Shown: positions 1,749 through 55,784 of the stretch, piece by piece | How the letters are laid out: each line of letters begins with the position of its first letter | How positions within the stretch are numbered: the first letter of the stretch is position 1 | Assembly (NCBI GenBank): GCA_965218295.1 | Contig: CBDCKN010000015.1 | Span: forward strand, 128,001 to 192,000 | Length of the DNA: 64,000 nt | DNA from: Longimicrobiales bacterium | GTDB taxonomy: Bacteria; Gemmatimonadota; Gemmatimonadetes; Longimicrobiales; Gaopeijiaceae | Direction: 5' to 3' | Position numbers and translations under genes: made by a program | The notes under the pieces: model-generated | Told to the model about the DNA's origin: nothing | Database searches by the model: none | What the model saw: only the letters and a program-made list of their open reading frames with translations

Positions 1749-1933
1749 TAGTGTTCCGTTGCCGAAGTTCGCGAGCCATCAAGAGGATCGGGGCGCCGTG
1801 GGATCAAGGCGGGACGACGCGGCGTAGCGCAAGCGGGCACCGCGCGAAGCGTGGTCGCAAGGAGTCCCAACGACCGAGCCCACGGATGCACCGTGCCCTC
1901 GACTGGCCGAGACACTTTGGCAACGGGACACTA
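1749..1933. mobile_element. MITE-like non-autonomous element, family A copy 1
   Basis: Terminal IR TAGTGTTCCGTTGCCGAAGT / TAGTGTCCCGTTGCCAAAGT (rc), TA at both ends, non-coding, near-identical copy at 27921-28086. Confidence 0.85.
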
Positions 1934-26036: not shown

Positions 26037-27923
26037 GTGAGACGTTTCGCCCCTGTGGTGGCGGCAATGGCAACAGCCGTACCGCTGCTCGCCTTCGGGC
26101 CCGCCGAACGCATCGCTCCCACGCACTGGGCGGTGATCATCGGAATCAGTGACTACGTCCACTATGACGACGTAACAGGTGGCGACCTCCCCGGTGCGGA
26201 GCACGATGCCCGGGGCATGCGGGACGTTCTCCTCAGCCGGTACAGTTTCCCGCCCGACAACATCCGGATGCTCCTGAATCAGGAAGCCACCCGCGCCAAC
26301 ATCGAGGTCGCCCTCACGGAGTGCCTGCCCGAGCGGGCGCGTCCCGGCGACAATGTCACCGTCTTCTATGCCGGACACGGCTCACAGATGTGGGACGAGA
26401 GCGGCGACGAGGACGATGGTCTCGACGAAACGCTGGCCCCCGCCGACGTCAGCCCCACGTCGACCGAGTTCGACATCAGTGACGACGAATTCGGAGCCTG
26501 GCTCCGGGCCCTCCCGACGGACAACGTCGTGGTGTTCCTGGACAACTGCAGCTCCGGATCGGGAACGCGCGACGTCACTCCTTTCTCCCGCACACGCCAG
26601 CTCGGACGGGACGTATCAGAGATCGACAGGCCGGCGACCATTTCCCGGCGCGCACTCCCGAACGAGAGAGACCGGACGGGCTTCGACCCCCAGGGCGCGA
26701 ACGTCCTGGAGCTCGCCGCCGCCCAGCCCGACCAGCCGGCCGTGGACGCCTTCTTCCCGGGGGAGAACGGCGCGGACCCCTTCCACGGTGGGGCGTTCAC
26801 GACCTTCCTCATCCGGGAGCTCTGGAGGGCCCCGGCGGACATGTCGTACGAGGACGCATACCGCCGGGTGTCAGACGACCTCAAGAGAAATCGCTTCGAG
26901 CAGGACCCCTACCTCTCCGAGGACGTGGCGTCCAAGTCGCTTCCACTCTTCTTCGTGGAGGGTGGGTCCCGGGGCACGTCTTCGGCGTCCCTGCCGGTGC
27001 TTTCCATCAATGGCTCCACGGCTGAGCTACAGGGCGGCCAGGCGCTTGGAATCACCTTGGGATCGACGTTCAGCACGGCCGAAGGCGCCCGCATGGTGGT
27101 GGAGTCGGTGAGCTCCGACCGCTCCGACGCCAGAGTCCTGACGGGATTCGTGAGCGAGGGCGATCGTGCGACCTTGGAGGGCTATCGCTTCCCGTCCAGC
27201 CCTCTGCGAGTCAACGTCGCCGGGGCGGACACCGGCACCGCCGACGCTCTGGCGAGCGCCATCGAGGGCTCCGAGGCGATCGTGCTTATCCATGATGCGG
27301 AGTCCTACTCCGATCTGCTTCTGCGGCGCCGGGGCACGGACATCCGGGTGGTTGGAATGGACGGGGCGGCACGGCACGTCTTCCCGGCAGGCGCCGAGGG
27401 CGCCGCCGACCTGGCCGATGCCCTCATGCGTGAGGCCTCCGCGAAGAGGCTCGGCGACATGGAGAACCCGGCACAGCCGTTCGGCCTCGAGGTCTGGCTT
27501 GCCGGCGGAGTGTCCAGCTTCGGCATCGGCGAGAACGTGCGCTTCCTGGCCGAGGCCGAGCGCAGCGGATACCTGACCCTGGTTGACCTCGGTACCGACG
27601 GGACGGTCACCGTGCTCTTCCCGAACCCGTACGACCGGGAAAACGTGGTGACTGCGGGACAGCGAATCGAGTTCCCGACCGAGAGCATGGAGTCCGAGAT
27701 CCAGGCCATGCCGCCGGCTGGCCGGGGAATGGTCCGCGCCTTCCTGACGCCGGAACCGTTGGACATCGCCGTCGGTGACGATTTCACCGCGGGCAAGCTC
27801 GAGCTCGCCGATCTCATTGCTGACGCCGTTCGCAGGGCCGCCGGCCCGGCGGAGGGCTCCGATGGAGCTGTACGTCTCGACTCGTGGGCGAGTGCGTCGG
27901 TGATGTACGAGATCCACAACTAG
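26037..27923 (+). CDS. Exported caspase-family (peptidase C14) protein with C-terminal DUF4384-like domain
   Basis: Signal peptide; WAVIIGISDY, FYAGHGS (His), FLDNCSSG (Cys), HGGAFTTFL; C-terminal GYLTLVDLGTDGTVTVLFPN. Confidence 0.85.
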   Translation: MRRFAPVVAAMATAVPLLAFGPAERIAPTHWAVIIGISDYVHYDDVTGGDLPGAEHDARGMRDVLLSRYSFPPDNIRMLLNQEATRANIEVALTECLPERARPGDNVTVFYAGHGSQMWDESGDEDDGLDETLAPADVSPTSTEFDISDDEFGAWLRALPTDNVVVFLDNCSSGSGTRDVTPFSRTRQLGRDVSEIDRPATISRRALPNERDRTGFDPQGANVLELAAAQPDQPAVDAFFPGENGADPFHGGAFTTFLIRELWRAPADMSYEDAYRRVSDDLKRNRFEQDPYLSEDVASKSLPLFFVEGGSRGTSSASLPVLSINGSTAELQGGQALGITLGSTFSTAEGARMVVESVSSDRSDARVLTGFVSEGDRATLEGYRFPSSPLRVNVAGADTGTADALASAIEGSEAIVLIHDAESYSDLLLRRRGTDIRVVGMDGAARHVFPAGAEGAADLADALMREASAKRLGDMENPAQPFGLEVWLAGGVSSFGIGENVRFLAEAERSGYLTLVDLGTDGTVTVLFPNPYDRENVVTAGQRIEFPTESMESEIQAMPPAGRGMVRAFLTPEPLDIAVGDDFTAGKLELADLIADAVRRAAGPAEGSDGAVRLDSWASASVMYEIHN

Positions 27924-28086
27924 TGTTCCGTTTCCGAAGTTCGCGAGTCACCAAGAGGGCCGGGGCGCCGTGGGATCAAGGCGGGACGACGCGGCGTAGC
28001 GCAAGCTACGGCAAGGAGTTCCAACGCCGAGCCCACGGATGCACTGTGCACTCGACTGGCCGAGACACTTTGGTAACGGGACACTA
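27921..28086. mobile_element. MITE-like element, family A copy 2
   Basis: Same termini and body as 1749-1933; CTAG at both ends; begins at the TAG stop of the caspase gene. Confidence 0.85.
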
Positions 28087-41210: not shown

Positions 41211-41447
41211 TAGAAGGCTGTTGAAGGAGTACAGCGGGTCGCGTTGCGGATGCCACGGCCCCAGATCCTAGGCGGAGCGACGACGCCATAGCCGTCGCTA
41301 CGGTTAGGAGCTCCAACAACGGGGGCACCGCGCGAAGCGTGGTCGGGGCCGTGCCACCGCAACCCACGAACATGTATGTTCATACCGACTCTTGTGTTGG
41401 GCACAGGGTGGTTGCGCGGCCCACTGTACTCCTTCAACAGCCTTCTA
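41211..41447. mobile_element. MITE-like element, family B (237 bp)
   Basis: Perfect 24-bp terminal IR TAGAAGGCTGTTGAAGGAGTACAG (41211-41234 / 41424-41447), extending imperfectly inward; TA at both ends; non-coding. Confidence 0.85.
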
Positions 41448-54859: not shown

Positions 54860-55784
54860 CGACCTTGACGGAAAGAGCCTCTCGGGTGGCTCGATACCCC
54901 TCTTCCAGGAAGTACTCGATCCGGTCGAAGTCGAAGCCTCCCTGGTCCTCCAGATCGGGCCGCACCAGGGTCAACGGGACGCCTGTCCAATCGCGTACCG
55001 TGTCCCTCCGCTTCTGACCGGACATGATGGCGAAGACCCTCTGATGGACCGCCACCAGCCCCTCCTTGGCAACCAGGCGGGCGTCCGCGTCCGGGCCGGC
55101 GCCAGCATCGACGGCGATGATACGGGTGGCCCCCATGTCCGAGGCCCGCCGCAGAGGTAGCATCTCCTGGACGCCACCGTCCATGAGGAATCGACCATCC
55201 ACCTCCGCCAACGGAAACAGAACGGGAAGCGCACACGACGCATATACCGCATCGACCAGAGGAATGTCGGTGTCGCCCCGATGGCCGAGCCAGACCGTCT
55301 CGCCCGACGCCAGGTCGACCACGTTCACGGCCATCGGAATTTGAAGCTCATGCCAACGCTCCGTTGGAAGGAGCCCAAGGATGTAGTCCCTGAGAGGGCC
55401 TCCCTGGAACACGCTTGCGGCACGGATGCCGTTGATCCACACGGCCCGGCGATTCAAGCGGATGAGGTCGCGTCGCCTCAAGCTACATGCAAAGGCCTCC
55501 ATCTCCTCGACGCTGCGGCCTCCCGCAAAGGCGGCCCCGACCATGGCTCCGATGCTCGTCCCGATGATTCCGGCTACCGGAACGCCCGCCTCCTGGACGG
55601 CCTTCCAAGCGCCGATGTGGGCCAGTCCCTTGAGGGCCCCGCCCCCCATGATCAGCCAGGTCACGTCGCCGGACACACCGCCGGACACGTCGCCGGACAC
55701 ACCGCCAGACATGCCGCCGGACACGTCGCCAGACATGCGGCCGGACACGCCGCTCGTACCACCGTCCTCGAAGGAGGTCGTCAC
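54852..55784 (-). CDS. Patatin-like phospholipase
   Basis: GGGALKGLAHIG, GTSIG, MDGG. Confidence 0.9.
   Translation of the reverse strand: MTTSFEDGGTSGVSGRMSGDVSGGMSGGVSGDVSGGVSGDVTWLIMGGGALKGLAHIGAWKAVQEAGVPVAGIIGTSIGAMVGAAFAGGRSVEEMEAFACSLRRRDLIRLNRRAVWINGIRAASVFQGGPLRDYILGLLPTERWHELQIPMAVNVVDLASGETVWLGHRGDTDIPLVDAVYASCALPVLFPLAEVDGRFLMDGGVQEMLPLRRASDMGATRIIAVDAGAGPDADARLVAKEGLVAVHQRVFAIMSGQKRRDTVRDWTGVPLTLVRPDLEDQGGFDFDRIEYFLEEGYRATREALSVKVDV
55662..55745 (-). repeat. 12-bp coding tandem repeat x7 (S-G-x-V/M)
   Basis: Encodes SGRM SGDV SGGM SGGV SGDV SGGV SGDV at the patatin N-terminus. Confidence 0.85.

Follow-up and report, generated by a model that had tools for sequence, protein, structure and literature searches.

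A hairpin of 22 nt, present twice in a 64,000-nt stretch of a Longimicrobiales genome (hereafter the window), was found to belong to a family of short cassettes that very probably move by replacing a few bases of their targets. The cassette is a real, widespread and ultra-small mobile hairpin with an unusual replacement signature that has apparently gone undescribed. Because it occurs at dozens of unrelated sites in several phyla, where it nearly always takes the place of 4-5 bases, without any duplication, it is likely to be one of the smallest mobile elements known.

The window holds two matches to the 22-mer (GGGCACCGCGCGAAGCGTGGTC), both exact and both on the + strand, against 0 expected (Table 1), and two matches were reached in 0 of 100 shuffles of the window sequence; no further match was present in the window at up to three mismatches. 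The identity of the two copies reported in the first-pass annotation is thus confirmed, and the fold proposed there was reproduced with DNA parameters at -5.5 kcal/mol. In the window's own genome (G000, 3.57 Mb), the 22-mer occurs eight times exactly and 11 times at up to two mismatches, namely in nine family-A and two B-like elements. Family-A cores carry TACG (empty) in 22 cases genome-wide and the 22-mer in nine; a second tally of 22 empty and eight filled copies misses the window copy, which has a 1-nt insertion. The empty core had been read as CAAGC-TACG-GCAAGG, which was confirmed at the empty copy in the window, and TACG stands in all 22 empty cores. As had also been claimed, the insert destroys the family-A hairpin. 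For family B, an empty allele with ATCT had been predicted, of which the count of 4 nt stands but the letters do not: ATCT was not seen, and related empty alleles read AACGG-AGAT-GGCC (G000 C15:6929), AGGT and CCG-CGAT-GGG. The exact empty allele of the window's own B subfamily was not found among related elements. The description of the hosts as two different MITE families needs to be qualified in that A and B share an internal core, but their insertion sites are indeed non-homologous because the hairpin that is broken in A stays intact in B.

Table 1. Positions of the cassettes, their host MITEs and the comparison allele in the window.
Feature	Position	Strand	Related alleles or sites
Cassette, 22 nt: tag GGGC, stem ACCGCGC/GCGTGGT with a G.T pair, loop GAA, final C	1835..1856	+	TACG in empty copies at the same place
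Identical 22-nt cassette within family-B MITE	41323..41344	+	4 nt here (AGAT, AGGT or CGAT) in related empty alleles
Family-A host MITE, filled, 185 nt (184 elsewhere), ends TAGTGTTCCGTT...AACGGGACACTA	1749..1933	+	Orthologous site: absent in G001, truncated in G002
Family-A MITE, empty form, 166 nt (comparison allele)	27921..28086	+	
TACG (4 target bases), lost to the cassette in filled copies; forms the 3' arm of hairpin CGTAGC-GCAA-GCTACG	28007..28010	+	
Family-B host MITE, 237 nt, 33-nt terminal inverted repeats	41211..41447	+	Orthologous site in G001 and G002 empty, reads CTA

Three MITE families of G000, A, B and C (for example, the filled family-A copy of Table 1, C9:456653 and C13:354076), have different ends and a common internal hairpin core, and family A falls into nested size classes of about 40-67, 91-96, 166 and 184 nt; together, the shared core and the nested classes suggest modular assembly. 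The family-B MITE in the window also contains an A+T-richer insert of ~34 nt (41365-41398) where other copies have the hairpin tip CGAA (4 nt). Diverged versions of this insert, which is not a GGGY cassette, are found in related elements, and it may be a different or older kind of replacement insert.

The mobile unit is not a single 22-mer, as the first-pass annotation had it, but a family with variable stems. Relaxed scans gave the common frame GGG(G)Y-ACC-stem-C(GNA)G-stem-GGT-C with varying interiors and a length of mostly 22-28 nt (range about 20-31). At the foot of the hairpin, 4 unpaired nt precede a stem of 7 bp that includes a G.T pair; GGGC or GGGT forms the tag, to which one more G is sometimes added, and the ends of the cassette are nearly invariant over more than 100 junctions. 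Among the loci collected, 51 distinct 22-mers have cassette ends and 34 of them the C-GNA-G loop, in which all four bases occur at N. The three free stem positions are paired in 31, 32 and 31 of these 34 variants, by G.T, A-T, C-G, T-A and G-C pairs, as counted without a pairing filter in loci that had in part been fetched using the exact 22-mer. The same degenerate pattern applied to viral contigs, a control with many chance matches, gave 60 matches, of which 17 were fully paired. Longer members have loops of GTTA, GCTA, GACA or GATA, or longer stems. Only the top strand tolerates G.T pairs; on the reverse strand these turn into A.C, which makes its fold worse. According to the available text of PMC13037366, GCGNAGC mini-hairpins are very stable in DNA, the RNA counterparts tested being much less so; the DNA mini-hairpins also resist exonucleases and mark primase sites on single-stranded DNA. 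G000 contains 38 members of the family with lengths of 22-31 nt, as against one in the reversed-genome control; 35 have a MITE end within 260 nt, one belongs to a B-like element whose end has decayed and another to an IS91-like remnant, and the last is probably a chance match.

A search for the 22-mer genome-wide and in relatives, which had been suggested as a check, found it at up to one mismatch in 10 of 61 relatives (control 0), with 57 copies in G001 and 33 in G002, the two other genomes of the window's genus. A GTDB scan with the 22-mer gave at least 89 loci, and the labels among the 80 matches listed are Gemmatimonadota, Planctomycetota (Pirellulales, Thermoguttaceae), Eisenbacteria and Myxococcota; the exact 22-mer had no match in viral contigs. 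A degenerate 22-nt pattern matched 13 of 301 genomes of the window's phylum, several singleton matches being due to chance since the control pattern matched eight genomes once each. Among relatives of the Planctomycete G228, the degenerate pattern was found in 46 of 151 genomes with up to 252 copies (control, two matches), and the incomplete assembly of a second Planctomycete, G240, holds 92 cassette copies. From the per-genome counts, which run from 0 to 252 among relatives, it follows that the family is patchy and comes in bursts.

Filled and empty alleles were compared at 33 curated sites. There were 246 distinct flank-plus-cassette contexts, 107 of which had an empty allele among the sequences collected and gave 39 sites; of these, three that were self or chance matches (9, 12 and 12 nt) and three that duplicated another site in the count were then dropped. 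The replaced length was 5 nt at 17 sites, 4 nt at 13 and 3, 6 or 7 nt at one site each, although single values may be off by one, above all beside G runs, because the empty alleles are those of paralogues or relatives. Neither plain insertion (0 nt lost) nor target duplication was seen at any of the 33 sites. The replacement of 4 nt proposed in the first-pass annotation thus holds as replacement without duplication, with a loss of either 4 or 5 nt (30 of 33 sites). Two partly overlapping sets gave 4 nt in 11 and 5 nt in five of 16 REP-like hosts, and, for 16 tRNA-array loci, 5 nt in seven, 4 nt in two, 3 nt in two and doubtful values in five (9, 9, 9, 1 and 2 nt). In metagenomes, empty alleles were available for 21 of 97 contexts, with losses of 4 nt (13), 5 nt (three, of which two are self matches in tandem copies), 6 nt (two), 9 nt (two) and 2 nt (one). 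That the net gain might always be divisible by three was rejected, given how often 22-5=17 occurs, and so, on the empty-allele comparisons, was equality of the replaced length with the tag length.

The target preference is loose and can be written as C|N4-5|G. At the curated sites, which are not fully independent, position -1 is C at 21 of 33 (p about 2e-4) and position +1 is G at 20 of 33 (p about 5e-4); metagenome flanks from redundant hosts have C at -1 in 95 of 112 and G at +1 in 87 of 112. Only 8 of the 33 curated sites have T as their first replaced base. In predicted folds, the replaced bases tend to fall in a loop or on the 3' side of a hairpin, an effect that is modest and the same on both strands, and no fixed cut position relative to hairpins was found at the curated sites or in the REP-like and tRNA-array hosts.

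The range of targets is wide. One 22-mer (at up to one mismatch) has 82 distinct 8+8 flank pairs in 119 loci, and 126 metagenome matches to a second variant gave 112 distinct flanks; the hosts comprise several MITE families, IS91-like genes, group II introns, tRNA genes, REP-/TIR-type repeats and the cassette itself, the last giving nested arrays. IS91-like transposase genes (Pfam Y2_Tnp, Zn_Tnp_IS91) are hit at ~15 distinct positions, six of them antisense, and group II introns and their reverse transcriptase (RT) genes at four sites on both strands. Cassettes also lie on both strands of tRNA genes in tRNA arrays, and one REP-/TIR-type repeat has the cassette at three neighbouring positions. 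At several T-arm sites in tRNA genes, the replaced bases are on the 3' side of the hairpin on whichever strand bears the cassette, a pattern in keeping with DNA as the target. Conservation of the empty allele in tRNA and protein genes fixes the polarity as insertion. The proposal of the first-pass annotation, an independent micro-element that replaces target bases instead of duplicating them and inserts at non-homologous positions in structured DNA, is borne out by the 82 flank pairs and 33 curated sites. Confinement of the 22-mer to these MITEs as an ancestral segment, against which that proposal had been set, was examined and failed because the 22-mer interrupts genes (tRNA genes and transposase frames) whose empty state must be ancestral.

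Many cassette-interrupted tRNA genes are found in Planctomycete and proviral tRNA arrays (L174-L178, L237, L309 and L340), and some of them are still predicted as tRNAs of 92-95 nt. The region around the cassette in L010 resembles what we take to be a structured RNA with a tmRNA-like 3' end and an intron-like part; it had no match in ARAGORN and Rfam.

The two copies in the window most likely came with their host MITEs, since at the orthologous sites, whose flanks are 96% identical, the whole B element is missing from both congeneric genomes and the A element is missing or truncated (Table 1). On these allele comparisons, both cassettes are most likely MITE passengers, and the cassette insertions themselves would be older events in the MITE lineages. 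In contigs of four public runs compared with the locus, the depth of the MITE is far above that of the flanks and joints skip the MITE; because paralogues are inseparable in contigs, this pattern is uninformative about whether cassettes are still moving. At four of seven variable positions, one of them 2 nt from the junction, both alleles occur among filled as well as empty family-A copies, which suggests either that copies have converted one another or that one site received the insertion repeatedly. Cassettes are moreover the exact endpoints of an A/C hybrid MITE (G000 C17:1855) and of IS91 deletions in L075, L085 and L051, the deletion in L075 taking out the middle of an IS91-like transposase gene, so that cassettes also serve as recombination points.

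These hybrids and deletions, the alleles shared between filled and empty copies, the filling of one and the same site by different cassette variants in some hosts and the location of 35 of the 38 G000 copies near MITE ends would all be expected of an old, immobile segment of repeats that is shuffled by recombination or gene conversion. Such a segment is nevertheless very improbable as the whole explanation and, given the unrelated target sites, is largely refuted: most sites have no flank homology, tRNA genes and transposase and RT frames are interrupted where the empty alleles are in the conserved state, and the same 22-mer is found in at least four labelled groups (Gemmatimonadota, Planctomycetota, Eisenbacteria, Myxococcota) among the matches listed. 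Conversion accounts for secondary spread only.

Based on the anatomy of the cassette, a possible mechanism is proposed in which a non-autonomous single-stranded DNA element is moved in trans by an HUH-type nick-and-join enzyme. Action at the DNA rather than the RNA level is probable, and the mechanism as a whole is put forward tentatively. Nicking and joining of DNA in trans is favoured because the anatomy is Y1-HUH-like, the loop is stable in DNA and both strands of RNA genes are hit. Excerpts of PMC3333891 and PMC6006769 describe recognition by Y1 HUH enzymes of a tetranucleotide placed at the base of an imperfect hairpin, and cleavage by TnpA-REP after C. The enzyme may likewise read the top strand folded as DNA, with the GGGY tag at the foot of an imperfect hairpin and the C(GNA)G loop. 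Hairpin-rich DNA exposed as a single strand or as a cruciform could serve as the target, which would be opened after C and rejoined before G 4-5 nt further on, with loss of the bases between. Copies would then persist mainly in dispensable DNA and multiply as passengers of MITEs and other elements. Several points count against the HUH step. To our knowledge, no target bases are lost in HUH peel-and-paste insertion, and the loss of 4-5 nt therefore needs a second cut or the trimming of a staggered break. The G bias at +1 looks like a symmetric cut of two strands rather than the cut of a single strand. The C|T rule of TnpA-REP does not hold either, because the junctions have C at -1 in 21 of 33 cases and T as the first replaced base in only eight. 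In addition, no enzyme gene was found linked to the cassette in searches of neighbouring ORFs and with profiles.

A link to a RAYT/TnpA(Y1)-like gene flanked by the motif had been suggested in the first-pass annotation and was not borne out. Y1_Tnp gave no match in the three genomes of the window's genus (G000, G001, G002) and none in 10 of the 12 further carriers from the window's phylum (13 of 15 in all); it was found in the other two and in all eight Planctomycete carriers. A cassette lies near (within ~1.5 kb of) only one of 30 Y1 loci, about 1.4 kb away inside a GTAG-type repeat. Y2_Tnp had no match in G000, was seen as remnants in G001, was found in two of five other carriers and was not found in the richest genome, G228, with a profile that is insensitive to the subfamily and had no matches in the control. 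Among 12 cassette-rich genomes, the Zn_Tnp_IS91 domain was found in six and the MOB relaxase profile in three. When 1193 neighbouring ORFs were clustered, nothing beyond host elements and orthologous genes emerged, no mobility family recurred in a Pfam scan of 70 such ORFs and two reference proteins, and none of the candidate profiles (Y1, Y2, IS91, Relaxase, Prim-Pol, Ku, RVT_1) was found in all carriers tested. An enzyme missing from a genome today may nevertheless have visited it in the past, because copies persist as passengers.

The lack of a dedicated gene in the neighbourhood and profile searches would suit host repair, in which hairpin-rich DNA is opened by a staggered break or a structure-specific nuclease and trimmed by 4-5 nt, after which a hairpin oligonucleotide that resists nucleases, either excised or made by primase or template switching, is end-joined with no dedicated transposase. 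The low sequence specificity of the targets, which lie in or just 3' of hairpins, the variation of the loss between 4 and 5 nt, and the exonuclease resistance and primase-site marking described for mini-hairpins in the available text of PMC13037366 are in line with such repair. Ku exceeded the cut-off in three of five genomes, G000, G001 and G002, but was below it or not found in the two cassette-rich Planctomycetes tested, G228 and G240, and Prim-Pol was found in only three of 12 genomes. Unlike the products of ordinary end-joining, the cassette has two ends that are nearly invariant over more than 100 junctions, and the bursts seen among relatives, with copy numbers from 0 to 252, suggest that the responsible factor is gained and lost. 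Host repair is considered an unlikely origin.

Alternatively, the hairpin might be transcribed within its hosts and retro-inserted by an RT acting in trans, such as that of a group II intron; in a target-primed reaction with the second nick upstream of the first, 4-5 nt would be deleted. Target-primed insertion can delete target bases, as in R2-type elements, and an RNA intermediate has reportedly been proposed for the cyanobacterial SDR elements. Cassettes do lie within group II introns and their RT genes, and the conserved G.T pair could be a G.U pair. RT genes (RVT_1) were found in nine of ten carriers tested, which says little because RT genes are common, and none was found in the incomplete assembly of G240, which has 92 copies. 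The loop is a DNA-stable C(GNA)G triloop with GTTA-type tetraloop variants and not GNRA, and there is no evident source of precisely ended 22-nt RNAs. Passage through RNA is judged quite unlikely, and the movement of single-stranded DNA in trans is retained as the preferred reading.

Of the known systems, the cyanobacterial SDR elements (SDR1-8), which Elhai et al. are said to have described in 2008, are reportedly 21-27 nt long, show compensatory changes, lie in minitransposons, are nested in themselves and have no known enzyme. Compared with the SDR elements by description only, the cassette likewise has the size of a very short dispersed repeat (~20-30 nt) and a structure with compensatory changes, the free pairs being kept as counted above, and is embedded in MITEs and nested in copies of itself. 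Going by these descriptions, the cassette would work like the SDR elements. In the available text of the sources, SDR5 inserts precisely into HIP1, between its bases 3 and 4 (PMC4390886), and has been reported from Nostocaceae (PMC5861425); SDR elements are cited also in PMC2884548 and PMC3116915. In contrast, the cassette has no HIP1 (GCGATCGC) target, its 33 curated targets have no common word and lose bases, and it occurs outside Nostocaceae, in records of Gemmatimonadota, Planctomycetota, Eisenbacteria and Myxococcota among the matches listed. With REP/REPIN-RAYT systems, as far as these are covered in excerpts of PMC3333891, PMC6006769, PMC3733652 and PMC3116915, the cassette shares the tetranucleotide at the 5' foot of a short imperfect hairpin, copy numbers of up to hundreds and the C before the junction, and it is often found inside REP-/TIR-type repeats. 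It differs in its tag (GGGC/GGGT as opposed to the GTAG/GTGG, CGTC or CnGA given there for REPs), in that it moves as a singlet and replaces target bases, and in that no cognate Y1 gene is flanked by it and carriers without detectable Y1 exist.

The GC clusters of yeast mitochondria (GC42) are also short, GC-rich palindromic mobile units with a stem constraint that merge and shuffle, but they are organellar and have AG or ACT target duplications (available text of PMC4478555), whereas the cassette is bacterial and deletes bases, with 0 of 33 duplications. The two hosts in the window are ordinary bacterial MITEs with terminal inverted repeats and a TA/CTA target, as described in the accessible part of PMC3184786. 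The cassette, in contrast, has neither matching terminal repeats nor a target duplication and is about a tenth of their size. IS91-type rolling-circle elements have oriIS and terIS ends and insert next to a fixed tetranucleotide (CTTG/GTTC). A miniature element of this type is distinguished from the cassette in that the cassette flanks have no CTTG/GTTC word, and IS91-like genes are targets here. No published description of the GGGY cassette family was found in the open full-text literature, including by DNA words, and there is a fair chance that the cassette is a new class. A bolder reading, possible but rather doubtful, is that of a new mobile DNA class: a 22-base copy-and-replace element with a dedicated enzyme that would read a GGGY-tagged mini-hairpin, open C|N4-5|G, remove the bases in between and put in a hairpin, with almost any stem accepted as the interior. 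Spread across phyla, such an element would build the mosaic interiors of MITEs and REP-like repeats and disable transposases, introns and spare tRNAs.

How repeats of 20-30 bases spread has been an open question since SDR and REP elements were described, and replacement insertion without duplication fits no standard transposition chemistry known to us. The cassette family provides a sharp and testable signature, with fixed ends, a free stem, a target loss of 4-5 nt and more than 100 natural junctions, and its copy number, which varies among relatives from 0 to 252, makes comparison of gene content a suitable way to look for the enzyme. Both basic research and biotechnology would have an interest in an enzyme able to write a short, internally variable hairpin into DNA. 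Part of the mosaic interior of MITEs is also explained by the cassette, as are broken IS91, group II intron and tRNA-array genes.

Further sequence features were noted. A GGGGACCCGCGAAGCGTGGCCCC hairpin occurs in about 13 copies in G000 (for example, C3:266560, C9:156676 and C13:171711) inside a longer conserved palindrome, in some cases near relaxase genes, and this palindrome may be the transfer origin of integrated mobilisable elements that use the same mini-hairpin. IS91-like elements (L028:1940-1978, G000 C9 and C14) have a conserved stretch GGGTRCC...GGGTC, presumably just inside their ori end, that is like the cassette frame without the full stem; judged by sequence, the likeness may be due either to chance or to ancestry. 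The window itself contains a tandem 12-nt repeat of about eight units (55659-55754) and an ORF (~2434-2905) that resembles what we take to be the start of a proline dehydrogenase, apparently cut short just before a QueE-like gene.
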